Notes: generated by a model from the letters alone, not told the origin. DNA of 64,000 bases from a virus (IMGVR_UViG_3300028829_004116:1-64000); one strand, 5' to 3'. Numbered from the stretch's first letter, positions 3,194 through 38,141 are shown. Numbers and translations are program-made.

Positions 3194-5617
3194 ATGTGGG
3201 AAACAATTCTAAAGAGGAATATTCCTGAAAAAGGAACAAGTGTAGATGATATTATTTATTTAATTACACAAGCAAGACAATTACCTGATTTAGAATTAAA
3301 ACTTATAGATACTAAAGGTAAGGCTGCTAATGAAATAAGACCCATTAGAAATAAAATGGAAGATATAAATAGTCAAATAAAAGGTATCAAAAAAGAGATT
3401 ACAGAAGCCAACAAAAATAAAGGTGGAGAGGGAGTAGAATCTTTAGAAAAAAAGATAAAGGCATTACAAAAATTAAATATACCTTTAAGGGAAGAAATTT
3501 TAAAAATTGAAAGACAACTAAAGAAAGATTTGGCTAAAATACAAAGTGCTTTAGATAGCCCTGTTATGAAAAAAAACCCCTTTACACCAATTATTACTAG
3601 AAGGGCAACATATTCAGGAAATGCTAAATTTTCTAAGAAAGAAATAAAGTTTGATGAATCAGGTAATATTTTAGACGATGGTTATGGTAATGAACAATTC
3701 TACGGAAAGGCCACACCACTTACTTTACAAGAAGCGGCTGAACATTATAAAGAAACAGTGGTAGATTATGATGAAGTAAATGTTAACAGGGTTATGCCTG
3801 AAGATAAGCCTTATGACGCACCTTACGCTCAATTAGTCGATAAACCGAAGCGTGAAATTTCTACAAATGAAGAACCTGTAAGTAATATGAAAGCGACTCT
3901 ACCACAGATAAGAACTATTCTACAACCTATCTCCAATGCTGATTTTAATGACTTTGTTATCTCATTAGATGAATTTATTGACACAGGTTCTGCACCAATT
4001 ATAGATGCTTACAAAGAAGAAAACCCTGAAAAGTTTGCAGAAATTATGGATTTAGTAGAAACATCTTCTTCCACTACATCGGTAGATGAAGATAGATATT
4101 TAGATAAATTACTTATGATGGTAAATAAGAAATCAATTGATTTTAATAGAAGTGCCGGTAATAATAGAGTTTCCTTACAGGTTACAGAAAAAGACGGATA
4201 TAGAAAAGAAACTAATAGATTAATTTTACCTGTCAATGAAGACCTATCCAATAGATTTGGTGAAATTTCACAATGGTTGGCTAAACATTATGAACCAGTT
4301 CCAGAAGTAAAAGACGAGAATTTATTTATTCAAAAACTCGTAAGAGGTATCAATGAAACAGTAGATGATAAGGGTGGTAATAATTCTATTGCCTACGCAA
4401 TCCAACACATGATAAATAATAACTTGGCTAATAGATTCTCGAATCAAATAGTAGTCACCGGAAGATATTTAGATGCTAATACAGAACAGCAAAAGTTTAG
4501 GGAATTCATCGGCACACAGGCAAGAAGAAATATGAAATTATTGGAAAATGTAGCCACCTTCCTACATAGAGGAAAGCAAATGTCAAGTTTTCTTACAGAA
4601 GACCAAATGAATCAAGCAAATGAAATGCTACAACAACAGGTAGGTAGTAAGGCGTTTGGTAGATATTTCCTCGCAGAAATACCTTCTGCTCAATTACAGA
4701 GAAAACCCAAGAGTGGTTTAGCAACAAGATTGGGTGCTACGGGTAAAAAGAAAACAGGTAAGGGTCAAACAGTAATTCCTAAAAAATTTCAAGGACCGTC
4801 AAGACAATCTAAGCAGGGTCCAGAAAATAGACCAAAACAAACTAAACCAACCCTTTACCCTAAAGAACCTAAGTTTAAAGTTCCAGTTGGGACTAAATTA
4901 GATTATCCTAAAGATTACGAACCCATGAGAGGAAATTATTCCGGGGAACTTACAGAAAATCAAAAAGAAGTATTAGCGGATATTAGACAATCGTATAAAA
5001 TTAACATACCTCCTTCTACTAAGACTATTGAAGAAAATAAAAAGAAACTTGAACAGACAAGAGCCGAAGTCGAAGAAATGTCACCCGAAGAAAAGGAGTC
5101 AAACCTCCAAGAATGGGTAGACCGACTTGTAGAAATTGCCTTGAAGAATAAAGGAAAAACTGATTACGAACCATATACGGCTAGAAAAAGAACCTTAATG
5201 CTGGGTCGTATGGTAGGTGAAGAAAATAATAAAAAGTTTGAACTATACACTCAAGCCGAACTAAGAGAAAAAATACTCGAAAATGTTAAGGATGGTGGAG
5301 AACCATTTTCAGGTTTGTATCTAAAATCGGGTTCAGTTTCAAAGGCAGACCTATCGGGACTTTCTACTAAAGAAAGGCGCAAGGTTAAAACCATGCTTCA
5401 AAACGCTCATCCAACGGAATACTTTGGTGAAGACTACCTTCGTTTGGGCAAAGTTATAAATATAATTGACGGTTTAGCGGAAGATGAAGAGGCCGAACTC
5501 TTGGAGAAGTTGGGAGTCAAAAACCTACAAATGGTAAAAACAGCCGCATCACTAAGAAAGAAATATGAGAATCTATACAAAAAACTATACGACATGGTAT
5601 ATGATGAGGAGGAATAA
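3194..5617 (+). CDS. putative internal head protein with N-terminal MWETILK tag (807 aa)
   Basis: Begins MWETILK; coiled coil, Lys/Pro-rich segment, YLK|S and VSK|A sites before the C-terminal domain. Confidence 0.6.
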   Translation: MWETILKRNIPEKGTSVDDIIYLITQARQLPDLELKLIDTKGKAANEIRPIRNKMEDINSQIKGIKKEITEANKNKGGEGVESLEKKIKALQKLNIPLREEILKIERQLKKDLAKIQSALDSPVMKKNPFTPIITRRATYSGNAKFSKKEIKFDESGNILDDGYGNEQFYGKATPLTLQEAAEHYKETVVDYDEVNVNRVMPEDKPYDAPYAQLVDKPKREISTNEEPVSNMKATLPQIRTILQPISNADFNDFVISLDEFIDTGSAPIIDAYKEENPEKFAEIMDLVETSSSTTSVDEDRYLDKLLMMVNKKSIDFNRSAGNNRVSLQVTEKDGYRKETNRLILPVNEDLSNRFGEISQWLAKHYEPVPEVKDENLFIQKLVRGINETVDDKGGNNSIAYAIQHMINNNLANRFSNQIVVTGRYLDANTEQQKFREFIGTQARRNMKLLENVATFLHRGKQMSSFLTEDQMNQANEMLQQQVGSKAFGRYFLAEIPSAQLQRKPKSGLATRLGATGKKKTGKGQTVIPKKFQGPSRQSKQGPENRPKQTKPTLYPKEPKFKVPVGTKLDYPKDYEPMRGNYSGELTENQKEVLADIRQSYKINIPPSTKTIEENKKKLEQTRAEVEEMSPEEKESNLQEWVDRLVEIALKNKGKTDYEPYTARKRTLMLGRMVGEENNKKFELYTQAELREKILENVKDGGEPFSGLYLKSGSVSKADLSGLSTKERRKVKTMLQNAHPTEYFGEDYLRLGKVINIIDGLAEDEEAELLEKLGVKNLQMVKTAASLRKKYENLYKKLYDMVYDEEE

Positions 5618-5620
5618 AAA

Positions 5621-5857
5621 ATGGAAGAAGAAACAACAATTGAAATTTTAGAAATATTAAAGGCCCTATCCGACAAGGTTAAGGATTTAGAGAGAAAATT
5701 AGCAGATTCGGACACAGCAATTATGAAGGCCGGATTTGTTCGAAGTCCAAGACCGAGTGCAAAAACCCAAGCAGGTATGCCAAACGGTGATGTGATTTCA
5801 AAAATGGATTGGAGTGATTTAGATTCACTTGTTAAAAATTTGGAGGGAACAATATGA
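5621..5857 (+). CDS. small scaffold-like coiled-coil protein
   Basis: GAGGAGG SD; coiled coil, IMK|A site; C-terminal KMDWSDLDSLV resembles scaffold end EMSWNEVHELM. Confidence 0.55.
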   Translation: MEEETTIEILEILKALSDKVKDLERKLADSDTAIMKAGFVRSPRPSAKTQAGMPNGDVISKMDWSDLDSLVKNLEGTI

Positions 5858-6279
5858 GTAAGAAAGAAGATATGGTAGCCGACGAAGCCGATATACAGGG
5901 AGTAGATGTTTTAACTCAATTAACAGAACTTACAGTTTTACTTACAAACGCATTGGGTTATGAACCAGCAGACGCACAAAAGAATGAAAAGGCTGGTAAG
6001 CAAGTCAATGTTGAACGATTGGCGGCTAAACCAATTACAAAGGAACAGACAATGGTTAAGAGAAATTACGAATCTAAATTAATGCCTAAAAATATGACCT
6101 ATAAAGCAGAACCGGACCAAGAAGAAATACGCATTGAATCCGATGGTAATGCAGAAGATTCACAGGATAAAGATGTTGAAGCCGCATTGGAAACAGCACT
6201 TGGGAAACTTAAGCGTCTTCGCCACACATTAACAATTAATGAAGATGCGGCATTAACTCCAAGCGATGAAATGGTGTGA
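5854..6279 (+). CDS. hypothetical acidic head-module protein
   Basis: GGAGG SD, ATGA overlap; MVK|R and TYK|A sites. Confidence 0.65.
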   Translation: MSKKEDMVADEADIQGVDVLTQLTELTVLLTNALGYEPADAQKNEKAGKQVNVERLAAKPITKEQTMVKRNYESKLMPKNMTYKAEPDQEEIRIESDGNAEDSQDKDVEAALETALGKLKRLRHTLTINEDAALTPSDEMV

Positions 6280-6284
6280 GGGTA

Positions 6285-8381
6285 ATGGTATTTACTCAAT
6301 TTGATAGTGTAGTAAAAAATGTTTCTTCATTAAAAAATATGGTTCGTGCTACATTTTTAAGTGCGAGAGAAAATCCTAAAGCATATGAAAAGGATTGGCA
6401 GAAATTAGTAGTCGAACTTAGAGAATTGTTGAAGGACCCGAAACTTAAGCAACAATTTCCTAATATAGATGATAGCATTTTATTTTCAGATGAATCATTT
6501 TCGGTAGGGAATGAAAAGGCGAGTAGTTTGTATGGCTCTTTTAATAACCAATCTTCACCGGCTGTTTTAGTTAAACAGGATAGACCTGAAAAATTTATAG
6601 AACCCAATAAACCAATGTATCGTATATTTGAGATAGACGACATGAAAGAAATTAAGGGTCTTACAACTGAATATGTTGTTCAAGAAAAATACGATGGCCT
6701 ACGAATACAGATTCATAAATTTGATAACAATGTTAAAATTTACACATTTAATGCGAGGGACATTACAGAAAAAATGCCTCAATGTGTTAAGGTATTAGAA
6801 GACCGTGTTTTTCCCAATTGTATTTTAGATGCAGAAGCAGTAATGTATAAAGATGGAGAGGCATTAGTTCGTGCTGAAACTCTCGCACATATTAATAGAA
6901 AGGTGACAGATGAGGCAGATATAAAGGCCCATGTGTTTGATATTATGTACTTTGAGGATAAGTCTGTTGCTTCGGATAAATTAGAAGAACGACTAATGAT
7001 TCTTATGAAAAACTTTTCAGCAAATGCAGACGAATATGTATTGTTCCCTAATAAGAATAATACAAGAGAGGCTGATTCATTAGCAGAAATTGAAGAATAT
7101 GCTATGGAGATAATGAAAAATCCTGCCTCCGAAGGAGTAGTAATTAAGGATTCTAAATCCTCGTATGTTATCGGTAAAAAGAAAAACCCTAAGTGGATTA
7201 AGTGGAAAAAATTTGTTGACTTAGATGTTATGGTTTTAGATAAAAAGGAAAATAAGAATGGGACATTTGGTTATACTATGGGTATCGGCCCTGTTGAAGA
7301 AGATTCTATTAAGGCAGTAGAAATAGATGGTGATTTTTATATGAATGTAGGAAAGACTACCAACACTAAAAAAGATGTTGAGGTTGGAACTATTATTCGT
7401 GTTATGGCTGATGAAATTATGGGCAATACTAAGAAGGGTTTCTCATTATTTAATTCAAAGTTTCACGAAATCCCCGAAGTAAAGTTGCCCGATAAATTAA
7501 TTACTCTTGAATTTTTAACAACGGGTGGTAAGAAAAGTCTTGGCGACTACAAAATTGACGCTCTTACAAAGTCGTATGAAATTACAGACGGAATACATGG
7601 TGTTGCTAAATTAAACACAGAACTAGATTTAGAAGGATTTGTATTTCATGGATTCAAAGACGATAATCTAATGTCTAAAAATGCTTCTTTGGATATAGAT
7701 TTTTGGAAGCAGGAATTAAAGGAAGCCTATGGAAAAGACAATGGTAGATTTTTTGTCTTCGTAAAACAATTACTCATAGACTACGGGACTCTATCAGCAA
7801 ATGATATTTTTGGCAGGGCAGTTAAACATGATGCTAAAATGATGAACAGACTTTTTGGTAATGATGCAAAGGCAGAAGGAAAAATGAAAGAGCGTTTGAT
7901 GAAAGCCGGAGATACATACGGTATTTTATATTCTGCTGGTAAATTTTCTCACAATGATGATGTATTAAATAAGGCTGAAAGTAGAAATGCTGAATTTGAA
8001 CTTTGGATTACAGATAGTGGGTATTTACATTTTGTCATAATTTATAAGGGTAGAAAAATGGCTTGGGAAATACGAGTAAGTGGTGATGAACAGATTTACG
8101 ATTTCTTGGGTGAATCTGGAAAATACCCTTGTAAGCAAATAACAAAACCTGAAACGGACAACCTTCTTGAAAGGGGTCCGATGATTTTAGGCGCACAAAG
8201 AAAGGGCTACCATGAGTATATTCTTAACGGGAAAGAGGTAAAAACAAAATTACATTGTAGATATTTACCAGTTAAAGGTAAAGAAATGTGGCTTGCTTGG
8301 ACTGGTTATGAAACAAAACCTGCACCAAAATCAAGCGACTCCGGACTAATAAATATCTATGAAGACGATTCATCAGATTAA
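6285..8381 (+). CDS. lig: ATP-dependent DNA ligase with N- and C-terminal extensions
   Basis: Motif I QEKYDGLR, III ILDAEAV, IIIa HVFDIM, IV EGVVIKD, V WIKWK, then an OB-like region. ATG 6285 preferred over GTG 6276. Confidence 0.9.
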   Translation: MVFTQFDSVVKNVSSLKNMVRATFLSARENPKAYEKDWQKLVVELRELLKDPKLKQQFPNIDDSILFSDESFSVGNEKASSLYGSFNNQSSPAVLVKQDRPEKFIEPNKPMYRIFEIDDMKEIKGLTTEYVVQEKYDGLRIQIHKFDNNVKIYTFNARDITEKMPQCVKVLEDRVFPNCILDAEAVMYKDGEALVRAETLAHINRKVTDEADIKAHVFDIMYFEDKSVASDKLEERLMILMKNFSANADEYVLFPNKNNTREADSLAEIEEYAMEIMKNPASEGVVIKDSKSSYVIGKKKNPKWIKWKKFVDLDVMVLDKKENKNGTFGYTMGIGPVEEDSIKAVEIDGDFYMNVGKTTNTKKDVEVGTIIRVMADEIMGNTKKGFSLFNSKFHEIPEVKLPDKLITLEFLTTGGKKSLGDYKIDALTKSYEITDGIHGVAKLNTELDLEGFVFHGFKDDNLMSKNASLDIDFWKQELKEAYGKDNGRFFVFVKQLLIDYGTLSANDIFGRAVKHDAKMMNRLFGNDAKAEGKMKERLMKAGDTYGILYSAGKFSHNDDVLNKAESRNAEFELWITDSGYLHFVIIYKGRKMAWEIRVSGDEQIYDFLGESGKYPCKQITKPETDNLLERGPMILGAQRKGYHEYILNGKEVKTKLHCRYLPVKGKEMWLAWTGYETKPAPKSSDSGLINIYEDDSSD

Positions 8382-8385
8382 ATAC

Positions 8386-8395
8386 TTTTATATAG
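8386..8395 (+). promoter_or_regulatory. archaeal-type TATA box, probably leaderless transcript for protease/MCP operon
   Basis: TTTTATATAG in an intergenic gap about 23 nt upstream of ATG 8418, which has no clear SD. Confidence 0.6.
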
Positions 8396-8417
8396 TTCAT
8401 AGAATACAGGACCTATT

Positions 8418-9578
8418 ATGCAGTTGAGAACTCCTATGTTTGGTAATGAGCCAAATAGTGGCGGGGAACTTGTAATTCTTAAGTCAAATAACGAATGTGT
8501 TATTGCTGGCTACGCATCAGTTGATGTAGTGGATAAGCAGAATGATAAGATTACATTAGGTGCAATCCGTGAAGCGGCTGACAAGTTTATGAAACAAGAC
8601 CGATATAGAAATGTAATGATTACTCATTCTAATGTTCAAGTCGGTGAAGTAGTAGACCAATATACAGATTCCAATGGTAAAGTCCTAAAAACAGGCGTTG
8701 ATGATACAGGGTTTTTTGTAGTGATAAAATTAAGAAATGATATTGAAAAGGCTAAAGAGGTTGCACGAGATATAAGAAAAGGCAACCTTCGCTCTTTTTC
8801 GATAGGTGGACAGGCGATAAACAAGACAAATAGATATGATGCCGATACCGGTAGTTATAAGGAAATTGATAAACTTGAATTGCATGAAATCACCATATGT
8901 GAAGAGGGCATAAACCCTGAAGCAAAGTTTAATCTAATAAAGGAGGACAAAAAAATGAATACAGAAATAGAAAAGGCTCTTAACGAGTTTAATGAAGTAA
9001 TGGCTGAACTTAAGAACAGTTCAATCTTGAAAGACGACAATGAAGATGTTGACTTGATGGAAGAACTGCCAGAAGAAGAGTCCGTCGAAACCGAAAGTTA
9101 CGGCGAAAAAGAATTGAAAGCAGAAGAAGATGATGATGATGTTGAAGAAGAAAACTACGGTGAAAAGGGTGAAATGAATGCCGAGTTCAAGGAATTTGTT
9201 GAACATAAGGCTGAAGAAATTAACACACTTGACCTATCAACTGCAAACATCGAAAAGGCTTACGAACAATTTAAGGCTGAAAGAGAAGAGGCTCGTGCTT
9301 ACGAAGTTATTAAGGCTGAATTTGATGCACGATATGATAACGAACTTAAGGCTGAGGCTGATGCAATTGCTAAGTCTAAGTTTAATGCCGCAGACGCTGT
9401 TCTTTCTCTTAAGGAAGAATTTTCTCAATTGAAGAAGTCACTTGAGAACAACACTATCGCTAAGGCCGCAGAAACTCAATCTGTGTCCAATCAACTTAGT
9501 GAGGACTTCGGTAACATTTCAGAAATGTCATGGAATGAAGTTCACGAATTAATGGACAAATACAACAGAGGTGCTTAA
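8418..9578 (+). CDS. HK97-type prohead protease fused to acidic coiled-coil scaffold
   Basis: IAGYASVDVVDKQND, MITHSN (His), LRSFSIGG (Ser), LHEITIC...NPEA; acidic coiled-coil C-terminal half; directly upstream of MCP. Confidence 0.9.
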   Translation: MQLRTPMFGNEPNSGGELVILKSNNECVIAGYASVDVVDKQNDKITLGAIREAADKFMKQDRYRNVMITHSNVQVGEVVDQYTDSNGKVLKTGVDDTGFFVVIKLRNDIEKAKEVARDIRKGNLRSFSIGGQAINKTNRYDADTGSYKEIDKLELHEITICEEGINPEAKFNLIKEDKKMNTEIEKALNEFNEVMAELKNSSILKDDNEDVDLMEELPEEESVETESYGEKELKAEEDDDDVEEENYGEKGEMNAEFKEFVEHKAEEINTLDLSTANIEKAYEQFKAEREEARAYEVIKAEFDARYDNELKAEADAIAKSKFNAADAVLSLKEEFSQLKKSLENNTIAKAAETQSVSNQLSEDFGNISEMSWNEVHELMDKYNRGA

Positions 9579-9579
9579 A

Positions 9580-10818
9580 ATGACAGGATATTTTAGAACA
9601 ATTGAAGACTTAGAGCGAGCGACCTACGGACTATCCGGAGGAAGTAATATTTTGAAAGCCGCACTTACGGGTATTCACCCTATTCACGATGGTTCGGATG
9701 CAGGATTAACGGGTGGAGATGCTACTTTGTATAACTTGGTTTATGGACAAAAAGTTTGGTCTATGATTAACCGAGAAATTAACGCACTTTCGATGCTTCC
9801 TAAGAAGCCGTGGAAGAGTAGTGGTTGGAGAGTTTTGAAGGGCCGTTCTATCGGTGGAAACGGTGATACTTTTGAACTTGCTGACTTAGACCTTTTGGGT
9901 GGACAAGCAGAAAACACACAGATTTCTGCTATTGATGAAATTGCACCTTCTTTCGCAAACCTAAGTATTTCACCTAAGACAATTGCACACACCTTCGAAC
10001 TTTCGGAGATTGCACAACTTCTTGGAGGAATGGATGATGGTATTGGAGATATTATGTCTACCTATCGAGAAGAAGTTGGTATTTCACACGCAGAAGCGAT
10101 GAACAAAATGGTTCTTACAGATTTAACTGCTAATGGTTTAAATGCACCTGCCGCAAGTGGAAAAGACTACGACAATCCAGAACGCTCTTTGCTTTCACTT
10201 TACAAGATTGTCACTACCTATGCAGAAATTAATGCCGCTTTGACAGAAACTCCAAGAGATGAAGACAGACATAACATTTTTGGTGTTTCTCGTGCTTCGA
10301 CAGGAACAGAATACCTTGAAGCATATGTTGATTCAAATTCGGGAACTGCTCGAAATTTGACTGTTAATATGCTTAATACTGCTCTACGAAACTTAATGGC
10401 TCGTGGCGGTTCACCAAAGGTTATTCTAACTGGATATGACACCATTCAAACATTAGGAGAACTTCTCCAAGCCCAAGAAAGATTCATGGGTCGAACAGAA
10501 GTTGTTCCTTCTCATGCTGGTATTAAGGGAGTTAAGGGAAGAGAAGTCGGATTTAAGGTTGCTACCTATCACGACATTCCTATTATTCCTACTAAGGATA
10601 TGCCAACAGGTGGTAGCGGAATTTCGGATATTCTTATTCTTGATACCGACCATTTGTTCTTGTGTACTCTTAAGCCTACTGAATACTTTGAAGGCGGTAT
10701 GAATACTAAGGAGATTTTCGGTCACGGATTCTTGGGACACCGTGGACTTTACCGAACAATCGCAGAAACAATGTGTACTTATGTGCGTGGACAAGGCAAG
10801 TTAATTGACCTTCAATGA
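9580..10818 (+). CDS. major capsid protein (HK97 fold)
   Basis: Follows the protease; about 412 aa; GAGGTG SD before ATG 9580; LPKKPWKSSGWRV and TYHDIPII...ILILDTDHL; N-terminal ILK|A candidate processing site. Confidence 0.85.
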   Translation: MTGYFRTIEDLERATYGLSGGSNILKAALTGIHPIHDGSDAGLTGGDATLYNLVYGQKVWSMINREINALSMLPKKPWKSSGWRVLKGRSIGGNGDTFELADLDLLGGQAENTQISAIDEIAPSFANLSISPKTIAHTFELSEIAQLLGGMDDGIGDIMSTYREEVGISHAEAMNKMVLTDLTANGLNAPAASGKDYDNPERSLLSLYKIVTTYAEINAALTETPRDEDRHNIFGVSRASTGTEYLEAYVDSNSGTARNLTVNMLNTALRNLMARGGSPKVILTGYDTIQTLGELLQAQERFMGRTEVVPSHAGIKGVKGREVGFKVATYHDIPIIPTKDMPTGGSGISDILILDTDHLFLCTLKPTEYFEGGMNTKEIFGHGFLGHRGLYRTIAETMCTYVRGQGKLIDLQ

Positions 10819-10829
10819 GGTGATTTAGT

Positions 10830-11189
10830 ATGGCAAGTACATTAGCACTATTAAATGACCACCACGGTCAAAGTTCACCTACTGTTATGGGACACCATTA
10901 CTGCGTTGATGCTACACTAAATATTACTGATTATGCAGTTGCTGGAGAAGTTATTACAGCCGCATCTTTGGGATTAAGTAGTATTACACAGGCTATGATT
11001 TGTGGCTATGAAAGTGTGGCTTATGTTCCTAAAATTAAGGTTGATACCGATGGAACATATACAAGTAGTAGTAGTATTACTGTTCTAGTAATAAATCCAA
11101 GTGGTTCCGATGCTGATGCTATGGCAACAGGTGCAGACGGACTTACTGATTTAGGAATGGTAAGACTACGAGTTTGGGGAACACTTTGA
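10830..11189 (+). CDS. putative capsid decoration/minor head protein
   Basis: GAGGTGA SD; small beta-rich protein right after MCP. Confidence 0.5.
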   Translation: MASTLALLNDHHGQSSPTVMGHHYCVDATLNITDYAVAGEVITAASLGLSSITQAMICGYESVAYVPKIKVDTDGTYTSSSSITVLVINPSGSDADAMATGADGLTDLGMVRLRVWGTL

Positions 11190-11198
11190 GGTGAACCC

Positions 11199-11519
11199 AT
11201 GTTAAGAGTAAAAAATATCACAGGCGGAACTAAGACAATTTTTGGGACTCAATACTTAGGTGGATTGACTTACGAAGTTGATGAGCGTTTGTTGGAATTT
11301 TTTATTAAGAATAAATTTGAAATCTTGGACTCCGTTGAGGCAGAATCAGCACCGGTTGAAGAAACCGTTGTTAAAGAAGTCGATGAAACGGAAGTCCTTG
11401 ATTTCTCTTCTATGACTAAGCGTGAATTACAGGCTTGGTTAAAAGAGCAAGGAATTTCTTATAAATTATCCGACAATAAGGCCGCTTTACTTGGTTTAAC
11501 TGTGACAGAAGAAGAGTAA
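11199..11519 (+). CDS. HeH/LEM(SAP-like) domain protein
   Basis: C-terminal FSSMTKRELQAWLKEQGISYKLSDNKAALLGL; a common gene type downstream of phage MCPs. Confidence 0.65.
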   Translation: MLRVKNITGGTKTIFGTQYLGGLTYEVDERLLEFFIKNKFEILDSVEAESAPVEETVVKEVDETEVLDFSSMTKRELQAWLKEQGISYKLSDNKAALLGLTVTEEE

Positions 11520-11521
11520 GG

Positions 11522-11528
11522 TTTAATA
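11522..11528 (+). promoter_or_regulatory. putative TATA box
   Basis: AAGG-TTTAATA-CC in an intergenic gap about 25 nt upstream of the GAGGAG SD of gene 11565. Confidence 0.45.
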
Positions 11529-11564
11529 CCTAACGCTTCTTAACGATAAATAAGAGGAGATACC

Positions 11565-12038
11565 ATGCCATTTAATTCAACCAAAGTAGACACGACAAGT
11601 AAAGTAATTGCCAACACAGGTGGTAATTTTGAAGGAGTAAATATTTTTAACGGGGCTACGGCATCCGTTGTTTATATTTGTGATAATATTTTTGACCAAG
11701 AAATTCAAGTAAGTACCTATAATAACGACCCAACAGTAACTGTTGAAGACAGTGCGTTATTAACCGTGGGTGATTTAGTGACGGGAACTGGGATTCCTGC
11801 TGATACAAAGGTTTTATCTATTACAGATGGGACTACCATTGAACTTACTGCATCTACAACAGGTGGAAGTTTAAACGGTCCTTTAACATTTGAACCATTA
11901 GATAATACTTTATGTAAATTTCACATAGCCGCAGACAGTACATATTTTTACCGAGGCTTTGACATCATATGTAGAAACGGTATTAGAGTTGTAGCAACCG
12001 ATTGGTCTAATTTAGAAGTTTTTACACTACACAATTGA
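11565..12038 (+). CDS. putative virion structural protein with GTGIP beta module
   Basis: Thr/Val-rich; insert LLTVGDLVTGTGIPADTKVLSI. Confidence 0.6.
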   Translation: MPFNSTKVDTTSKVIANTGGNFEGVNIFNGATASVVYICDNIFDQEIQVSTYNNDPTVTVEDSALLTVGDLVTGTGIPADTKVLSITDGTTIELTASTTGGSLNGPLTFEPLDNTLCKFHIAADSTYFYRGFDIICRNGIRVVATDWSNLEVFTLHN

Positions 12039-12048
12039 GGTGGTGTAA

Positions 12049-15827: not shown

Positions 15828-15828
15828 T

Positions 15829-16695
15829 ATGTGGGAAAGTCTACTAAAGCAAAACAAAATTCAAAAGGCTGGAAAGAGTACTAGTTATAAAATGTATAGA
15901 GATGCTTTACGAACAGCAGCATTTACGGTTATGGAAAATAAACCTGCTGGAACAGAATTTGACGCTAATGATTTAATTTTAATGAAAGAAGAGATAACAG
16001 AAATTGCTAAAACTTTGGTTCCTGCAAGATTTTTAGGTGGATTTGCTCAATTTAGAAAAAATAAATTTGACAATCAAATGCAAGTAGCGGCAAGAATGAT
16101 GGTCTCTAATGGTATGGCTGAAAAATTAAAAACAGGTAGGGTGGGATATAAACTTACAGGGCAGATGAGAAAGTCTAAAGATTACGGTAAGTCTCCAAAA
16201 AAAATTAGCCCTAAAATGGAAGAAGACATAGAAGAAGTTGTAGCCGATAACGAGTTTGAAAATAACCCCACTCTTTCGGACAAAATTAAACACATACTAA
16301 TGGAAGGTCGTAAAAGCAATAAACCTGCAAGAACTCAAGAAGAAATGGATGAGTTTAAAAGAAAATATCCTAATGTTGATAAGGCTGAAGGTGGTTGTGG
16401 CTGTGGCTGTGATGGTAAAGAAGTTACAAAGGCTTCATCAAAATGTACTAAAAGAACCAAGAAAACTAGTTCTAAAGTAAAGGGGAAAAAATGGACTCAA
16501 TGTGTTCCAACAGCAGAAAAAGGTAAATTTCGCAGGGCAAATTGGGGTCAAGCGGGTGTCAAAGTTACAGGAGATAGTGGAGATACTGAGCGTAAAAAAA
16601 CATTTAGAGCAAGACATAAATGTGAGACTTGTAAATTAAAAAATGGAAAGAAGCGTTATTATTCAAATCAATGTTTGGCTTGTAGGGATTGGTGA
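15829..16695 (+). CDS. tagged basic multidomain protein (MWESLLK) with Cys/His-rich C-terminal domain
   Basis: GTGA SD; K|A/S sites between modules; C-terminal WGQAG...RKKTFRARHKC...CLACRDW. Confidence 0.65.
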   Translation: MWESLLKQNKIQKAGKSTSYKMYRDALRTAAFTVMENKPAGTEFDANDLILMKEEITEIAKTLVPARFLGGFAQFRKNKFDNQMQVAARMMVSNGMAEKLKTGRVGYKLTGQMRKSKDYGKSPKKISPKMEEDIEEVVADNEFENNPTLSDKIKHILMEGRKSNKPARTQEEMDEFKRKYPNVDKAEGGCGCGCDGKEVTKASSKCTKRTKKTSSKVKGKKWTQCVPTAEKGKFRRANWGQAGVKVTGDSGDTERKKTFRARHKCETCKLKNGKKRYYSNQCLACRDW

Positions 16696-16700
16696 TTAAA

Positions 16701-17711
16701 ATGTGGGCGGATATTCTTAAGGCAAGAGCAACAATCAAAGTTAAAGGGGACATTTTTAGAAGATTGCTTCTTAGACATGTGGAAGAAACAGGTTATCAAA
16801 ATGAATATAGAATTAAAGATGTATTAGACAGTATATTCGAGGAATATAAAAGACTATACAGGGAAGATAATGAGGGTAAATCCCCCTCTAAATCGAAGGG
16901 GTCGGGGAGAATAGGAAGCGGACCCACATGGTCAATTCAAAGAGAAAAAATGGGTAGATATATAAATAAATATTTTCCTGAAGGATATAAAAGACAACAT
17001 AGAACAAATGAAATGATTAAACTAAATCAACAAGAAGACCTCGAAAAAATTCGCACAAGTAGAGGTGACAGATTAAGACTTAAAGATTGGGAAGCGTTTA
17101 AAAAGAGTTTAAGGGCCGGTCTTAATACAATAGTTCCAAGAGATATTTATGGTCGTAAATCATCGGTAAGAATAGTTGATGGTAAATTTATTGATAATAA
17201 GGCTACCATTAATATTTCTTTTAGGTCTTTACAAAAAGATAGAAGATATATTCATATTAATTTTATAGAAGAAGACGGTGATTATTATTTTACGACAATA
17301 GAGGGTAATATACAAGTTTTTGATAATGAAGTAATACAAACTGAAGCCCAATTAAGAGAAAAGGTTATAGATTTAGTTGAAGAAATTTACAAAGATGAAA
17401 GAGAGGAATACGATTTAAGGCAAAAGGAAGAAGATGAACTTACAGAAGAAGAAAATATTCGACAATTAGAGGCCGCTAATCCCGATTCTTACTGGGATAG
17501 AGAACGGGCAATGTTGGTTCCTAAAGAAAAACCTCCAGAAGAAGAGGAAACAAGAAGTTTAAATTTGGAAGAAGCGGCTAAATTAGGTGCTAAGGCTAAG
17601 GAAAAGGCAGATAAATTAAAAAATTTACTTGCGGAAAGAAAAAGAAAGAAGTCTTCTATGTCAAATATTAAGCCTACAAGAGGAAAGCGGGGTCGTAAAG
17701 ATGTTCCGTAA
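16701..17711 (+). CDS. tagged hypothetical protein (MWADILK)
   Basis: GGTGA SD before ATG 16701; N-terminal domain paralogous to 37633-37968. Confidence 0.7.
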   Translation: MWADILKARATIKVKGDIFRRLLLRHVEETGYQNEYRIKDVLDSIFEEYKRLYREDNEGKSPSKSKGSGRIGSGPTWSIQREKMGRYINKYFPEGYKRQHRTNEMIKLNQQEDLEKIRTSRGDRLRLKDWEAFKKSLRAGLNTIVPRDIYGRKSSVRIVDGKFIDNKATINISFRSLQKDRRYIHINFIEEDGDYYFTTIEGNIQVFDNEVIQTEAQLREKVIDLVEEIYKDEREEYDLRQKEEDELTEEENIRQLEAANPDSYWDRERAMLVPKEKPPEEEETRSLNLEEAAKLGAKAKEKADKLKNLLAERKRKKSSMSNIKPTRGKRGRKDVP

Positions 17712-17907
17712 AATTTTAGAAAAAATGCGTTTGGTTCAACTTGACATGGAAAGCATCTTAGAAACTGTGGTTCAGCAAAATGAAGACATACAGGATTACA
17801 CTGAGAGAACTCTTGGTGAAAAAATGAGCGACGAGATAATGGAACAAGTTATCGAGCAAGAGGTTGTTCAAGTTATTCAAAGAAGAATTGAGGAGGCATT
17901 TGAATGA
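17701..17907 (+). CDS. small acidic helical protein
   Basis: ATG 17701 (MFRKILEK...) preferred over the track's TTG 17629; overlaps the next gene by ATGA. Confidence 0.6.
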   Translation: MFRKILEKMRLVQLDMESILETVVQQNEDIQDYTERTLGEKMSDEIMEQVIEQEVVQVIQRRIEEAFE

Positions 17908-18941
17908 ATTGGTTTGATACTATCTCTAAGAAAAGAGAGAAAGGTATGCGTAAATTAGAAGAAGCCTTGCTTGCCGAGGGATATAAAATTGTTGAAATTG
18001 GTTCAGGTAAACATATAAAAATTAAAGTTAAGCGTTTATCGGAAGTAGACGACCCGAATGCACAAGAAGTACAAACAACTGTAAGTCATGCTGTTTCTCA
18101 GGGTAGAAAAAATGCCGCTATGGTTGTAAATGAAATTATTAATAAATTTACAGGAAGAAGGCGTAGAGGGCAAGGTTCATTTAAATTATCTAATGATAAA
18201 ATTAATACATGGCAAAGTATTCTTAAGATAGAACCGAAAGATAATCCACTGTCGGATGAGTTTGAAACACCGGAAATACCCCAATTAGATAGAGTAAAAT
18301 TAAACCCAAAGGGAAAACCGCACAGACTAATAAACAACTTTCCCATAGCCAAAAAATTTTTTGAAATAAGGAATAGTAGCGATTATAATAATATTTTAAG
18401 AGTAGAAGGTAATTATTGGATTTATGATAACTCCTATTTAGCCTTAGCGTTTAATACTCAATTTAATAAATCAATAATTAACGAACATGATTTAAAATCA
18501 GCCGTTAGAGAAATAGATTTATTTTTAGACGCTGTTCTTGAATTTTACTTGACTATTGATTCTAATTATGAAGAAAGAACTGAGGCAATAGAGGTATATG
18601 CAACTGCTATTTATGAATTTTTAGTTGGAGAATATGAAGGTTCTGCAAGAAGTAAAGCAGTTATTGAAGGCACTGTTGAAGAGGCTATGGAAATTTTAGA
18701 ATCGTTTAAGGGTAAAGTGAAACCTTTAGAAGTAGTTATACAACAAACCTTAGAAGATATAGAAGAAGGCGATACAGAAATAGATTGGGAAACTTTATCG
18801 CAGTTATATGATACGAACTTAGACTTTGACAATCCCCTTGAGGGGGTAGAAGAAGCAGAAAGTGAAGAAGGTATGTCGGCAGTAGACTACGAAGAATTAA
18901 CAACAGAAGAAGAATTAAGGAGGCGAAGAAACCGTGGATGA
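17904..18941 (+). CDS. double-tagged protein: HicA-like domain plus acidic domain
   Basis: MNWFDTISK, then LLAEGYKIVEIGSGKHIKIK (HicA-like); second tag NTWQSILK precedes an acidic domain. Confidence 0.55.
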   Translation: MNWFDTISKKREKGMRKLEEALLAEGYKIVEIGSGKHIKIKVKRLSEVDDPNAQEVQTTVSHAVSQGRKNAAMVVNEIINKFTGRRRRGQGSFKLSNDKINTWQSILKIEPKDNPLSDEFETPEIPQLDRVKLNPKGKPHRLINNFPIAKKFFEIRNSSDYNNILRVEGNYWIYDNSYLALAFNTQFNKSIINEHDLKSAVREIDLFLDAVLEFYLTIDSNYEERTEAIEVYATAIYEFLVGEYEGSARSKAVIEGTVEEAMEILESFKGKVKPLEVVIQQTLEDIEEGDTEIDWETLSQLYDTNLDFDNPLEGVEEAESEEGMSAVDYEELTTEEELRRRRNRG

Positions 18942-19527: not shown

Positions 19528-19545
19528 GTAAAAGGGTGATTAAAA

Positions 19546-21825: not shown

Positions 21826-21826
21826 G

Positions 21827-21834
21827 TTTAAAGA
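21827..21834 (+). promoter_or_regulatory. putative TATA box for chaperone/TMP operon
   Basis: AAG-TTTAAAGA-CC in an intergenic gap about 23 nt before the GGTGA SD. Confidence 0.45.
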
Positions 21835-21867
21835 CCTACCCTTAGTATTAACAAACGGTGAAAACCT

Positions 21868-22236: not shown

Positions 22237-22238
22237 CG

Positions 22239-24904: not shown

Positions 24905-24908
24905 TATA

Positions 24909-25628: not shown

Positions 25629-25633
25629 TTAAA

Positions 25634-33548: not shown

Positions 33549-33889
33549 TTACAAAACAAGCAAGGGCTACAATAAAAGCAGATGTAATTTCTACATACAC
33601 TCATTTTGAAGTAGGAACAGGTGGAGATTCTACAAACCCTAATGCTAATTCCTTAGACGCACCTTTAGCAAACAGGGCTACTGTAACTTCTGTTTCAAGT
33701 GGCGAATCCTCAGTAGATTTTTCTTTTACAGTTCAAGGTTCTACATTTGTAGGACACACGATTAAAGAAGTAGGAATCTTTTCAGCATCAACGGGTGGTA
33801 ATATGTTGTTAAGAGTTAATTACGATGGCATTGGGCCATTAACATCACTCGATGAAATAGAATTTATTATAACAGTGGAAGTGGACTAA
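33545..33889 (+). CDS. small tail/baseplate (collar-like) protein
   Basis: THFEVGTGG...IKEVGIF...GNML motif common in tail-fibre collar proteins. Confidence 0.6.
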   Translation: MITKQARATIKADVISTYTHFEVGTGGDSTNPNANSLDAPLANRATVTSVSSGESSVDFSFTVQGSTFVGHTIKEVGIFSASTGGNMLLRVNYDGIGPLTSLDEIEFIITVEVD

Positions 33890-36207
33890 TGACAATAACG
33901 ACAGCAAATCAAAAAGGAATAACAACTTTGGGTGGAACCAGCGGTTTAGTAGACCAAACAGATAAAATGCACAGTGGACTTATAAAGGCTTTAGAGGTAT
34001 TTGGACAGGGTAGAAAAATTATGGGACACGCTGGATTTGAAATATATGATTCGGGTTCCTATGTGGGTTATAGACTTAAACAACCTATACACTTTTTAGA
34101 TTTAGGTCGCCATGTTACATATGAAACAAATTTAGAAGTTTCATATACTTCTCAACAAAGAGATGCTAATTATGATAAATATGATTGGGTTGTATTAGTT
34201 CCTAATCATGGTGGTAATCCTGCACTTCTTATTGTTCCGGGGACTCTCGACGGTGCTAACGCTTTAGTTTCGGATATAACAGAAGGTTGTATTCCCGTTG
34301 CTTTGATTAAGGTTCCTGCTGGAACAGATACCGACGATACCACCGGTTATCAAGCACAGTTATATACATTTAATAATCGTCGCCAAGATTTATCACTTGG
34401 ATATGATGACGGGGCAACGCCACCTTATTATAAAAATACATTAACTGCTATTTCATCCGCAGGAGGAACTACTTTTACTAATACTATTGGAGATTTAATT
34501 TTTGACAATACAGATGTTAACGACCAAATTGTTATGAGATTAGGAACTGATACTACTGCTACCGCTTTTGAAGTTAGAAACGATTCCGACACAGCCGCTT
34601 TTAAAGTTAATGGTTTATCCGCTACTGATGTTGTAGGTAATTTAGTTGTCACACAGGGTTCAGCAGGTGGACAAATAGCACTTAAGATTGATAATGATGA
34701 TGTTGATAAAGTTGCTTTAGGTATTGAAGCCGCAAATACAACTGCTAATGTTTTAGATATTACTGCTAATGCTTTGACTACCGGTGCGGTTATTAAAAGT
34801 TCTTCGACGGCATTAACTACTGGGGCGGCTATTGATTTAATTTCTACTTCTACACCTGCTGATGGTAGTGGTTCTACACCCCACACTTTTAAAACTACTC
34901 AAGCGGGAACTGGAACTCATACAGTAAAGGGGCTACTTGTAGATGTAAATAAAACCGGAGTTACGGATAATGGGAAAACAACTACTCTTACTGGAATACA
35001 TTTAGATGTTGATGATACGGCTACAAATAATTCAGTAGGAACAGTAACTATGACAGGTTTAGATATAGATGTGAACTCGGCTAGTGATACTGGAACCATA
35101 AAAAACATTGGATTAGATGTAGAGGTTGCAGGGGCAGATACTAATTATGCCGCTTTATTTAATGGTGGTAATGTTGGTATTGGGACAACAGCACCAGAAA
35201 GAGCATTAGAAATAGAAGCCGCTTCAAACCCCGGAATTAGATTACAAGAAACGGGTCAATCGGGATATTTAGAGATGTTTGGTTTAGCAGATAGCCAAGC
35301 ACAGATTAAAGCCACTAACGCAACTTCGGGAGAAACATGTAGTCTTGATATAGATGTATCAACTGTATCGGGTAATAATCAAGTAATAAGATTTTTCCGT
35401 AATGCTAATACATCTTCTGCTGGTATTATCCAAGTTCACGACCCCGGAGAAGTAACAACAACTTTAGCAGTTGTAGCCGCTAATGGAAAGACCTCGATAG
35501 GAAGTGGAACAGTTGATGCTAATTCAATGCTAACAGTCGAAGGGGCAATTTCTTTAGATGAAATAGGAGTTGCACCTACTAATACTGCTGATAGAGCGCA
35601 ACTATATGCAATACAGGGAGATAGACATTTGCGTTATGTAGATGGTGCTGGTGTTGATTTACCTATATTATTAGGAGGAAAACATTCTATTTGGATTCCC
35701 GCAGAAGCAATTAGTCCGAGAAGTAATGCTGGTTGTGGTGCTTTGGCTACAACAGCCGCCGCTACAAATGGAAGACCTGATATTAGAGCATTACCTTTTG
35801 ATAAAGATTCAGATGAACATGGACAATTTACAATAGCGATGCCCGCTACTTGGAATGGAGGAACTGTGACAGCACAATTTTATTGGACTTCAACTTCTTC
35901 AACAACTTCCCATGATGTAACTTGGGCTATTCAAGGTGTTTCTTTAGCAAATGATAATCCAATTGACACCGCTTTTGGAACTGCCGTGGTTAAACACGAT
36001 ACAGTAATAGCGGCTAAAGACCTTCATATTAGTGGTGAAACAGGTGCAATAACTGTTGCAGGTGCAGGTGCAGGAGAATTAGTTTGTTTTCAAGTTTATC
36101 GAGATGTTGATGGAAACGGAACTGCCGCTAATGATGATTTAAATGTTGATGCTTTATTAATGGGAGTTAAAATATTTTATACTATTTCAAGAGGAAATGA
36201 GTCGTGA
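33889..36207 (+). CDS. tail fibre/receptor-binding protein
   Basis: PVALIKVPAG anchor, beta-helix-like L-D-[VI]-[DE]-[VD] repeats, GNVGIGTTAPERALEI fibre repeat, C-terminal beta domain. Confidence 0.75.
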   Translation: MTITTANQKGITTLGGTSGLVDQTDKMHSGLIKALEVFGQGRKIMGHAGFEIYDSGSYVGYRLKQPIHFLDLGRHVTYETNLEVSYTSQQRDANYDKYDWVVLVPNHGGNPALLIVPGTLDGANALVSDITEGCIPVALIKVPAGTDTDDTTGYQAQLYTFNNRRQDLSLGYDDGATPPYYKNTLTAISSAGGTTFTNTIGDLIFDNTDVNDQIVMRLGTDTTATAFEVRNDSDTAAFKVNGLSATDVVGNLVVTQGSAGGQIALKIDNDDVDKVALGIEAANTTANVLDITANALTTGAVIKSSSTALTTGAAIDLISTSTPADGSGSTPHTFKTTQAGTGTHTVKGLLVDVNKTGVTDNGKTTTLTGIHLDVDDTATNNSVGTVTMTGLDIDVNSASDTGTIKNIGLDVEVAGADTNYAALFNGGNVGIGTTAPERALEIEAASNPGIRLQETGQSGYLEMFGLADSQAQIKATNATSGETCSLDIDVSTVSGNNQVIRFFRNANTSSAGIIQVHDPGEVTTTLAVVAANGKTSIGSGTVDANSMLTVEGAISLDEIGVAPTNTADRAQLYAIQGDRHLRYVDGAGVDLPILLGGKHSIWIPAEAISPRSNAGCGALATTAAATNGRPDIRALPFDKDSDEHGQFTIAMPATWNGGTVTAQFYWTSTSSTTSHDVTWAIQGVSLANDNPIDTAFGTAVVKHDTVIAAKDLHISGETGAITVAGAGAGELVCFQVYRDVDGNGTAANDDLNVDALLMGVKIFYTISRGNES

Positions 36208-36673
36208 TACTATGTTTGGTAGAACAGTAAATGGGTTTGGTTCTTATGCAAATAGAACAGTAGCGGTTTCAGCAGTATCGGATATTTACAGTGAAGATGA
36301 TATTGGAACAGGTGCAACAGGTGATGGTAATAGTAAGTTCACTAAAACCGTAGGAGGTTCTGCAACACATAATCAAAGGGTATTAGAACCATTAGAGGTT
36401 TCAGGAGGACAAGCAGTTACAGTTGGATTAAATGGTGAATGGACTGGAACGGAAACTTCTATAAGTTGGTCTATATTAGAACTGGATAATGGTGCGGGTT
36501 TAGTTACTGGTATTTCTCCATCAAGCGGAACATCGGCAGGTTTTGACCCAGTATTTACAATAGCAGGTGGTAATCAACAAGGTAATCAGGCACTTTATCA
36601 ACTTACATTACAGGTAGTAAATAGCGGTGGAACTACAACTAAAAATTGGGATTTTATAATACTCGTTCCGTGA
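36190..36673 (+). CDS. Ig/PKD-like fibre-associated protein (ATG 36197)
   Basis: GAGG SD then ATG 36197; SISWSI...YQLTLQVVNSGG is PKD-like. Confidence 0.5.
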
Positions 36674-36683
36674 TAATAGACAA

Positions 36684-36694
36684 ATATTAAATAG
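36684..36694 (+). promoter_or_regulatory. putative TATA box, leaderless
   Basis: ATATTAAATAG about 24 nt upstream of GTG 36718. Confidence 0.45.
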
Positions 36695-36717
36695 TCGTTA
36701 TTAGTTCGTTTATAATA

Positions 36718-36936
36718 GTGGTAGGCATGTCTGATTTAGATGAAGTCCTTGAAAGAGATTCGGATGGTAAGATTAATTGGCTTGTCTCGAAAGTGAATGA
36801 CATTGACACACGAGTTCACACTATTGAAACAAACCATTTATTTCACATGGAAAAAGACATGGCTATGTTACGAAAGGGAGTTTATCTTCTTGCCGCAATC
36901 GGTATTACATATTTAACGGGAGTACAATTACTATGA
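36718..36936 (+). CDS. coiled-coil plus C-terminal TM protein (XhlA/holin-like)
   Basis: IETNHLFHMEKDM followed by hydrophobic GVYLLAAIGITYLTGVQLL. Confidence 0.55.
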   Translation: MVGMSDLDEVLERDSDGKINWLVSKVNDIDTRVHTIETNHLFHMEKDMAMLRKGVYLLAAIGITYLTGVQLL

Positions 36937-37373
36937 AACAAACAAAAGATACATTTAATGACAGAATGGTTAAGCGAACAGTATTACCAGCAATTTATCT
37001 ATGGCTTTTAGCCGCAGGTTCAGTAGTGGCTATGGGTATTTTAAAACCCGATGTAGTCTTGAATAACCTTGATGGGTTTATTGCTCTTATAGCAATTATT
37101 GGTGGAACTGCCGCCCCTGCTCTTTCAACAGTTTTGCGTATGTGGGAATCCGAACAGACCATTGAGATTGATAATATGGGCGTTGAAATGGAACATGAGC
37201 GTGACCGTGATGCACTAAAGAAGCAACACTTAATTGACTTAGAAAAGGTTCAACAGAAGCATGAACACGCCCTACTTACTGCGGCTCAAGAGCATAAACA
37301 TATTGTTGAGAAGCATAAAGAAACCATTGTTAAACTTACACCTATCCATAAGATGGGTGAAAATACGGAGTAA
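36933..37373 (+). CDS. two-TM membrane protein with His-periodic coiled coil
   Basis: Two hydrophobic helices, then a His-rich helix. Confidence 0.7.
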   Translation: MKQTKDTFNDRMVKRTVLPAIYLWLLAAGSVVAMGILKPDVVLNNLDGFIALIAIIGGTAAPALSTVLRMWESEQTIEIDNMGVEMEHERDRDALKKQHLIDLEKVQQKHEHALLTAAQEHKHIVEKHKETIVKLTPIHKMGENTE

Positions 37374-37378
37374 TAAAT

Positions 37379-37522
37379 ATGTGGCGAGATACTTTAAAAA
37401 AGGATGCTGAAACTTATTTTAGAGAAAAAATTGCGGAGTATGAGCGCAGATTAAAAAGGGACCCGAAAGATGTTAAGGCTAAAAATGCCTTGAAATATTA
37501 TAGAGAACAATTAGGTGAGTAA
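37379..37522 (+). CDS. small tagged protein (MWRDTLK, 47 aa; not in ORF track)
   Basis: GGAG SD; MWRDTLKKDAETYFREKIAEYERRLKRDPKDVKAKNALKYYREQLGE*. Confidence 0.65.
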   Translation: MWRDTLKKDAETYFREKIAEYERRLKRDPKDVKAKNALKYYREQLGE

Positions 37523-37636
37523 ATGACACGATGTAATTTTTTAGATACTTGGTTTGATGAACAGTCAAAGATAATAGATAAAAAAGAAGAGAAAACTAAG
37601 AAAGATTTTGTAACTGGAAAGGAGGTAAAAAAATGA
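37523..37636 (+). CDS. small hypothetical protein (37 aa; not in ORF track)
   Basis: AGGTGAG SD; MTRCNFLDTWFDEQSK...; fills the gap exactly, with ATGA overlap. Confidence 0.55.
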   Translation: MTRCNFLDTWFDEQSKIIDKKEEKTKKDFVTGKEVKK

Positions 37637-37968
37637 GTTGGCAAGATATATTAAAAGTTCATCCCATGTCACTAAAAGTTATAGGTTCTGCTATAAGACA
37701 GGCAATTAGTAATCATTTAGAAGAAACGGGTAGAAAAGATGTGTATGAGTTTGAAGAAATTATAAAACTGTTTCCTAAATATTTAGAAATAACGGGACAA
37801 AAATCTAAAGCAAGGTTAAAAAATAAATTTGAAAAGATGGTGATGAGATATATTCCCGAAGGATATGGAAAATTAAAAGAATTATTAACCGATAAAAAAG
37901 GTTATGCTATACCGAGTTCTATTGAATCCGCAATTACCGGATGGAAAAAAATAGGTGAAAACGAATGA
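37633..37968 (+). CDS. tagged basic protein (MSWQDILK)
   Basis: GGAGGT SD; paralogous to the N-terminal domain of 16701-17711. Confidence 0.7.
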   Translation: MSWQDILKVHPMSLKVIGSAIRQAISNHLEETGRKDVYEFEEIIKLFPKYLEITGQKSKARLKNKFEKMVMRYIPEGYGKLKELLTDKKGYAIPSSIESAITGWKKIGENE

Positions 37969-38141
37969 GTTGGCAGGACATTCTAAAATACAATCGAAAA
38001 CATTATGTTCGTGCAGGTCGTAAGCATAATGACCCTAAAACAATTAGTGTTCATCAAAAAATTTTAGAAATAGTTAATGACCCTAATATTCCAAGAAGAG
38101 AATTAGGTGCAAGAATAAAACAAATTTTAGAAGAGGAATAA
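37965..38141 (+). CDS. small tagged basic protein (MSWQDILK, 58 aa; not in ORF track)
   Basis: AGGTGA SD, ATGA overlap; MSWQDILKYNRKHYVRAGRKH...QILEEE*. Confidence 0.7.
   Translation: MSWQDILKYNRKHYVRAGRKHNDPKTISVHQKILEIVNDPNIPRRELGARIKQILEEE

Follow-up and report, generated by a model that had tools for sequence, protein, structure and literature searches.

The 64,000-nucleotide stretch IMGVR_UViG_3300028829_004116:1-64000 (the window, which here means this whole stretch) is the first part of a single virus record of 92,255 bp, and its gene content, in agreement with a published description (PMC5434244), identifies the virus as a group B-like magrovirus. One strand of this genome raises a simple question: why do many proteins that resemble each other in nothing else begin with the same short peptide? 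This N-terminal element (the tag) has the consensus M-x(0-2)-W-x-[DNE]-[IV]-[LI]-K, and the seven open reading frames (ORFs) of the window that carry it start M(x)W-x-x-[IT]-[LI]-(S)K. An earlier note on this DNA had read the tag as an address label that loads interchangeable proteins into the virus head, a Lys-specific equivalent of the capsid targeting sequence (CTS) of phage T4. The tag was found to be specific to this virus group, to be under selection as a peptide and to share its last residues with the major capsid protein (MCP) and the prohead protease. That it serves as a CTS-like cargo label, clipped off by the prohead protease, is suggested by these sequences and by the analogy with T4, and we judge the case for it to be evenly balanced.

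The plus strand of the virus codes for the large terminase, the portal, an S78 prohead protease fused to a scaffold, an SU10-type MCP and tail genes, whereas the minus strand codes for Cpn60, a Cpn10-like protein, a family-B DNA polymerase (PolB), an RFC-like ATPase, ribonucleotide reductase (RNR) and ThiF. All seven tagged starts listed in the earlier note were found at their coordinates (Table 1), each a few codons from the previous stop and with a Shine-Dalgarno-like GGAGG or GGTGA upstream, and the internal copy NTWQSILK lies within the ORF starting at 17904, at 18204-18227. The set is larger than these seven, however, since 16 further tagged plus-strand genes follow one another almost without a break at 72,929-83,273, outside the window; this is the biggest cluster and brings the number of tagged genes to 23. 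A comparison of N-termini between the structural and the replication arm gave 23 of 57 plus-arm genes against none of 57 minus-arm genes (Fisher p = 1.5e-8), where 0.08 tagged genes are expected from amino acid composition, and the remark that no replication protein of the minus arm starts in this way extends to that entire arm. The tag is carried by 40% of the plus arm and by about one gene in five of the whole genome. The carriers share a strand with the head and tail genes, but that they are late proteins, as had been said, is an assumption, since the biggest cluster lies beside a putative control region.

The statement that the sequences beyond the Lys are mostly unrelated also proved accurate. 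When the 23 tagged proteins were compared after deletion of their first ten residues, no mutual similarity was found apart from the paralogous pair 73606 and 74288 (32% identity, outside the window) and a weak match between 16701 and 37633. The proteins, of 47 to 807 aa, include acidic and basic ones, and a transmembrane-like segment was seen in none. Only two of them match a family, namely a PAP2 phosphatase domain and, below the Pfam cut-off, a weak SprT/DUF6782-type metallopeptidase; the seven tagged proteins of the window gave no convincing match in Pfam or PHROGs, and a search of the ESM Atlas with the 807-aa protein returned no result.

This arrangement is common to related viruses. Through the MCP, 79 IMG/VR stretches were gathered (44-98% identity), which contain about 125 tag-initiated ORFs with ribosome-binding sites upstream. 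Almost all are co-oriented with the MCP gene, and the structural module is where they lie; relative to the start of the MCP, they are most frequent at -8 to -2 kb and at +5 to +10 kb. The tag is retained down to the 44% limit of MCP identity. Clustering of the tagged ORFs from 200 related IMG/VR loci reduced 655 distinct sequences (median 112 aa) to 299 clusters without detectable similarity beyond the tag. Any Pfam match was obtained for only about 6 of 145 cluster representatives (including pentapeptide-repeat, DUF1540, DUF6943 and metallopeptidase matches), and a transmembrane-like segment was seen in only 4 of the 299. Homologues within a cluster retain the tag or a degenerate version of it, and internal tags are located at module junctions. 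An example is the 17904 ORF, which is a fusion of two tagged genes because the relatives L006 and L063 begin the downstream gene at the second tag (MIWESILK); its first module has about 100 aa. The motif search suggested in the earlier note was run on related viruses and on prokaryote genomes. The DNA pattern for M-S-W-x-D-I-L-K occurs in more than 119 IMG/VR stretches among the matches listed, many of them on contigs of about 90-100 kb, compared with some 3-4 by a rough chance estimate. In 596 Gb of prokaryote genomes it was found at 36 places, compared with about 26 by a similarly rough estimate, as single matches in unrelated taxa, and none of the 36 is titled Poseidoniales. The tag is therefore specific to this virus group, and a host-wide signal was rejected on the chance-level frequency in the prokaryote genomes.

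Such numbers bear on the idea that the tag has no common function and is a relic of shared descent, or of repeated duplication of 5' ends, in one expanding and diverged family. True paralogues exist, as in the 73606 and 74288 pair, and the arrays of small genes suggest duplication. A relic should, however, decay as fast as the rest of each protein, whereas eight near-invariant residues are here set against the loss of all other similarity over 299 clusters of 31-806 aa and across the full MCP divergence. We consider a relic hardly credible.

The earlier note had further argued, from the two MSWQDILK copies, that selection acts on the peptide. The synonymous differences between these copies are exactly as it described, and codon use over 119 non-redundant tags bears the argument out. 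Every synonymous codon of Ile, Leu, Lys and Asp occurs, at a frequency close to the background apart from a slight preference for A/T (Leu as TTA, CTA, CTT, TTG and CTC, Ile as ATA, ATT and ATC, Lys as AAA and AAG), and substitutions within the tag are conservative in protein terms (I/V, L/I, D/N/E). Since all synonymous codons are used and replacements are conservative, selection acts on the peptide. It could be supposed instead that the first 24 nt work as nucleic acid, either as a translation-initiation or regulatory RNA site, like the RegA operators of T4 early mRNAs, or as a recombination or homing site for gene cassettes. The position at gene starts, in tight arrays of small variable genes, would suit such a role, as would the mild A/T enrichment and the Ser at codon 2, which is always AGT. 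The AGT bias, however, results from a general purine preference after the start codon (purine at +4) that is present in untagged genes too; what is conserved is the residue and not the nucleotide; the Trp follows the ATG at a distance of one, two or three codons; the DNA upstream of tagged genes is variable; and the motif also occurs internally and, as a variant, at the C-terminus of the scaffold. A nucleotide-level signal was thus rejected on the codon evidence, and we regard a nucleic acid element as very improbable. Readings of the tag as a SUMO-like psi-K-x-E site or as a PIP-box were dropped, because the flanking residues that they need are not conserved.

Links emerge between the end of the tag and the proteins of the head. 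The tag terminates in two hydrophobic residues and a Lys (phi-phi-K), mostly preceded by D or N. In the MCP, a conserved N-terminus of 25 residues closes in S-N-I-L-K26 (nt 9649-9657), which is followed by Ala and then by a stretch of variable sequence rich in Gly and Thr; all of the 41 MCPs compared, some as low as 47% in identity, share K26, which is a candidate for the maturation cleavage site. In the protease-scaffold protein, K22 (V-I-L-K, aa 20-22, nt 8475-8483) is invariant and lies ahead of the protease fold, and K175 (N-L-I-K, aa 173-175, nt 8934-8942) is likewise invariant and falls precisely where the Pfam protease domain ends; additional phi-phi-K sites are found in its linker and scaffold at aa 203-205 (nt 9024-9032) and aa 297-299. 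The ILK that the earlier note had seen in both proteins is present at aa 24-26 of the MCP and at aa 20-22 and 203-205 of the protease. At K26, K22 and K175 the two hydrophobic residues are often preceded by N, D or S, as in the [DN]-I-L-K of the tag. Pro directly after the tag Lys was found in only 1 of the 299 cluster representatives (11.1 expected) and 1 of the 655 ORFs overall, but it is enriched 1.5- to 2.3-fold over the following four positions, and small or polar residues are preferred directly after the Lys. This pattern fits a scissile bond followed by a linker.

A strict Lys, the exclusion of Pro from the next position and a Pro-rich linker beyond would also characterize a processing or stability signal that has no part in packaging, such as a short propeptide removed by a cytoplasmic Lys-specific protease or a half-life element for timed turnover, and internal tags at module junctions would suit a polyprotein-style processing. 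The S78 prohead protease is, however, the only protease identified in the structural arm, and in known systems proteases of this type work inside proheads. A propeptide of eight residues is unlikely to mask an activity, and neither the aromatic half of the tag nor its likeness to the scaffold tail (see below) would be accounted for, all of which makes this explanation improbable.

A second magrovirus lineage uses a different tag, with 183 ORFs starting M-T-A-F-D-x-A-W-x-[LIV]-[VLM]-K (MTAFDxAWxLVK). In this lineage, Pro is found in none of the 183 directly after the Lys and in 53 of the 183 one position further on, a sharper pattern than that of the first lineage, and phi-phi-K is retained in the MCP (...D-L-L-K, then Ala) and in the protease (D-F-[IL]-L-K). 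Given that phi-phi-K and the Pro pattern are kept, the Lys-ended half is a general element that is common to the tag and the head proteins.

The aromatic half is a different matter. The protease-scaffold protein, whose protease domain was recognized by Pfam Peptidase_S78 (PF04586) at 47.4 bits against a cut-off of 21 and is also matched by PHROG head maturation protease families, carries the C-terminal motif M370-S-W372-N-E-V-H-E-L-M (nt 9525-9560), of which M370 and W372 are invariant. In the form M-[SDTN]-W-x-[DE]-[VIA], this motif is invariant about 15 residues from the C-terminus in 70 of 70 homologues, and among untagged plus-arm proteins it is found elsewhere only at the C-terminus of the 78-aa protein (5621-5857). 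That C-terminus is near-identical to the scaffold tail of a magrovirus group at 45% identity. The 78-aa protein is a candidate mini-scaffold or second bearer of a shell-binding motif. Structure prediction with AlphaFold2 (alignments of 41 sequences for the MCP, mean predicted local distance difference test score [pLDDT] 43, and of 37 for the protease-scaffold, mean pLDDT 49) placed scaffold helices at aa 255-365 and a terminal helix at aa 372-385, with a pLDDT of about 50-83 per 10-residue block, so that the motif may, with low confidence, sit in a discrete terminal helix after the long scaffold helices. When both alignments were used as profiles against the PDB, no structure of relevance was retrieved. 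In the present lineage, the resemblance of the tag to the scaffold tail is suggestive, but it is not general: the scaffold tail of the second lineage, ...D-G-W-[KR]-A-x-E-D-L-A-R-R-A-L, is homologous to the present one (W-x-x-phi-x-x-L-phi-x-[KR]), and since scaffold tails do not track the tag across lineages, a general rule that the tag copies the scaffold tail was rejected.

As to the function of the tag, we favour a route in three steps. While the head is assembled, the tag helix would use its aromatic and hydrophobic face to dock the tagged proteins inside the procapsid, on the conserved N-terminal segment of the MCP or on the scaffold core; in the present lineage, the C-terminal W-helix of the scaffold may occupy the same docking site. 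The S78 prohead protease would then cut after the tag Lys, and the same phi-phi-K cut would trim the MCP after K26 and, after K22, K175 and other sites, release the protease-scaffold and break it up. The released cargo, which here would comprise 23 mostly small, soluble and fast-evolving proteins and group-wide hundreds of families, would remain in the head and pass into the next host cell along with the DNA. The cargo system proposed in the earlier note is thus partly supported, since the tag is modular, selected as a peptide, confined to one strand and embedded in the head module, ends in a phi-phi-K shared with head proteins and excludes Pro from the next position, although the likeness to the scaffold tail is not general. 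The T4 CTS likewise remains the right functional analogy, but the protease is of the HK97 type (Pfam S78) and not of the T4 gp21 type.

Several points weigh against this route. The scaffold tail of the second lineage is no copy of the tag of that lineage, so that the likeness fails to co-vary. The Pro pattern could equally come from helix capping. In a proteome rich in I, L and K, phi-phi-K is frequent, with about 2.7 expected per 386 aa by a rough estimate, and a structural role is probable for some of the conserved copies, for example V-I-K104. In the AlphaFold2 models, the MCP and protease folds were of too low a quality for K26, K22 and K175 to be located. The virus is uncultured, and a literature search found no proteomic paper on tagged proteins in virions or on their cleavage. 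A load of 23 cargo genes, or of about 300 families, is far beyond any known CTS system. Finally, the 16-gene array (72.9-83.3 kb) abuts a repeat-rich, gene-poor region and could consist of early rather than head-assembly genes.

The last two points would be easier to understand if the tag docked its carriers to another shared partner, recruiting or regulating accessory proteins in the cell. Possible partners are Cpn60/Cpn10, a ThiF/E1-type system, a host hub protein, or an assembly or replication compartment. The short amphipathic W-x-x-I-L helix resembles a generic linear interaction motif, the virus itself codes for Cpn60, a Cpn10-like protein and ThiF, and the biggest tagged cluster, next to its putative control region, resembles an accessory or host-takeover block. 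Docking alone, however, leaves unexplained the invariant phi-phi-K that is common to the tag, the MCP N-terminus and the protease/scaffold boundary, the near absence of Arg in place of the tag Lys, and the interleaving of tagged genes with head genes in relatives. In addition, chaperonins are found in only about half of the magroviruses (PMC5434244), whereas the tag is found in every MCP/protease group sampled. On these grounds we hold such a docking role to be unlikely. The capsid-targeting reading can also be taken further, in that one peptide code (an aromatic helix plus phi-phi-K, with lineage variants) would load into the virion a hypervariable arsenal of effectors from hundreds of unrelated families, which would be trimmed by the protease and injected along with the DNA as a ready-made kit for counter-defence and host takeover. 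This extension is tentative, being less probable than capsid targeting as such.

The coordinates of the features are collected in Table 1. The 807-aa tagged protein stands in the interval between portal and protease, which in tailed viruses is the usual site of minor or internal head proteins. The 68-aa ORF may possibly bear a degenerate tag, with F in place of W, but this assignment is uncertain.

Table 1. Features of the virus genome discussed in the text (window coordinates unless marked as genome coordinates)
Feature	Coordinates	Strand	Remarks
Tagged 807-aa protein, MWETILK	3194..5617	+	Between portal and protease; no Pfam or PHROG match
Untagged 78-aa protein	5621..5857	+	C-terminal W-helix MDWSDLDSLVK, aa 62-72, nt 5804-5836
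ATP-dependent ligase domain protein	6285-8381		Within head module
Prohead protease + acidic linker + helical scaffold	8418..9578	+	Pfam Peptidase_S78, aa 23-177
MCP, SU10-type, HK97 class	9580..10818	+	Candidate cleavage site after K26
Tagged 288-aa basic, Cys-containing protein, MWESLLK	15829..16695	+	
Tagged 336-aa protein, MWADILK	16701..17711	+	
68-aa ORF, start MFRKILEK	17701..17907	+	Fills gap between two tagged genes
Tagged 345-aa protein, MNWFDTISK	17904..18941	+	Second tag NTWQSILK inside, nt 18204-18227
Tagged 47-aa basic protein, MWRDTLK	37379..37522	+	
Tagged 111-aa basic protein, MSWQDILK	37633..37968	+	
Tagged 58-aa basic protein, MSWQDILK in other synonymous codons than the 37633 gene	37965..38141	+	Final gene of the plus arm
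Tagged PAP2 phosphatase-domain protein, 273 aa	genome 81,692-82,513	+	Domain aa 98-185; no transmembrane-like segment

The record is circularly permuted or terminally redundant, because the portal gene leaves it at its end and re-enters at its start (L081:9063-10255 and window 1-150, plus strand), and the plus arm runs uninterrupted from about 72.9 kb over the record end to 38.1 kb. Between the divergent arms, at genome 68.0-72.4 kb, there is a gene-poor region of 4.4 kb in which the palindrome ACCATATGGT, also given as (T)TACCATATGGTA(A), recurs a dozen times or more, alongside repeats of the CCCACCC type. This region is a candidate origin or operator array, and the first gene of the large tagged array begins directly after it, at 72,929. 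Another contig with tagged genes, IMGVR_UViG_3300021958_000021 (184,733 bp), has almost exactly twice the length of 92 kb, which could be explained by a magrovirus concatemer or by an assembly dimer.

The protease, MCP and portal have their closest matches, about 26-32% identical, in HVTV-1 and HCTV-5, two viruses of haloarchaea. No N-terminal W-x-x-I-L-K tag was found in the closest cultured relative, halovirus HVTV-1. HVTV-1 (NC_020158) has, at about 98.3-100.9 kb, a family with a terminal W-motif at the opposite protein end: 15 small ORFs, 14 of them in one tandem array, carry a C-terminal [FY]-W-[DE]-x-[RY] motif, which lies 7-12 residues ahead of the stop in all but one and is absent from the HVTV-1 protease. 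Magroviruses, which are associated with Marine Group II (Poseidoniales), were described as viruses of about 100 kb whose head module resembles that of haloviruses and whose replication module is of archaeal type, with an ATP-dependent ligase inside the structural module, Cpn60 and RNR (PMC5434244). The same paper took it that these viruses encode no co-chaperonin (PMC5434244). Immediately upstream of the Cpn60 gene of the present virus, an 82-aa ORF (window 53510-53758, minus strand) matches Cpn10 at 24.6 bits against a Pfam cut-off of 21.1.

The motif string was searched for in the literature, as were magrovirus metaproteomes and CTSs of archaeal viruses, in each case without a match, and the magrovirus literature examined makes no mention of the N-terminal motif. 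Magroviruses are among the most abundant archaeal viruses of the surface ocean. If the capsid-targeting reading is true, about one-fifth of the genes of this abundant group, nearly all without a function so far, would become virion cargo, and a code for capsid targeting would be known for the first time from an archaeal virus, with hundreds of cargo families, a scale unknown in phages. If the effector-arsenal extension is true, this would be by far the largest known virion cargo system and a means of programmable protein delivery into archaea. The tag offers a simple sequence rule to pick candidate injected effectors, for anti-defence or takeover, from metagenomes, and a peptide with which the loading of foreign proteins into HK97-fold shells can be tried. 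Even if packaging proved wrong, a strict eight-residue peptide that begins the products of 40% of the structural-arm genes would stand as a signal across the proteome that calls for an explanation.

Among known systems, the CTS of T4 comes closest; Mullaney and Black, in 1996, are said to be its source. It is present on the internal proteins IPI-III and Alt and is removed by the gp21 prohead protease (PMC7411985, PMC9958956). In both cases a short N-terminal peptide, of about 10 residues in T4 and of eight residues on 23 genes here, is placed on unrelated proteins, and it ends in a motif that is also found in capsid and core proteins, which is the head-protease consensus in T4 and here phi-phi-K, where cleavage is proposed. 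The carriers are encoded in variable gene clusters and are soluble and often basic. The cut proposed here, however, is after Lys (phi-phi-K), whereas that of T4 is after Glu ([LI]-x-E); host and virus are archaeal, and the protease is of the HK97/S78 type instead of the gp21 type. T4 has a handful of carriers, whereas 23 per genome and about 300 families are seen here. Because of the type of protease and the cut proposed after Lys, the present system is an analogue of that of T4 and not a member of it.

Binding to the shell is, in known systems, the task of the C-terminal end of the scaffold or prohead protease. A C-terminal encapsidation signal of the HK97 gp4 protease was reportedly described by Duda, Oh and Hendrix in 2013. 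For the SPN3US gp245 protease, a C-terminal packaging signal was inferred (PMC7411985). The present protease similarly has a conserved extreme C-terminus, here on the fused scaffold, which would be expected to be its shell-binding element. What differs is that the signal (M-S-W-x-[DE]-[VI]) would here have been copied onto many N-termini, a likeness that fails in the second lineage.

In phage P1, a segment at the N-terminus of DarB is enough for loading into the head, of the protein and of a reporter alike, which serves delivery and anti-restriction (PMC9024508), and an N-terminal loading signal is also what is proposed here. The Dar proteins have no common N-terminal consensus (PMC9024508). 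In the magrovirus, one consensus is found on all carriers. Encapsulins also rely on a short conserved terminal peptide that docks cargo of various kinds on the inside of a shell with the HK97 fold, and docking there is proposed here as well. Their cargo-loading peptides are usually C-terminal, stay uncleaved and serve few enzyme families, and encapsulins package no DNA and deliver nothing, whereas the tag of magroviruses is N-terminal, is borne by hundreds of families and would be cleaved off, and its cargo would be delivered with the DNA.

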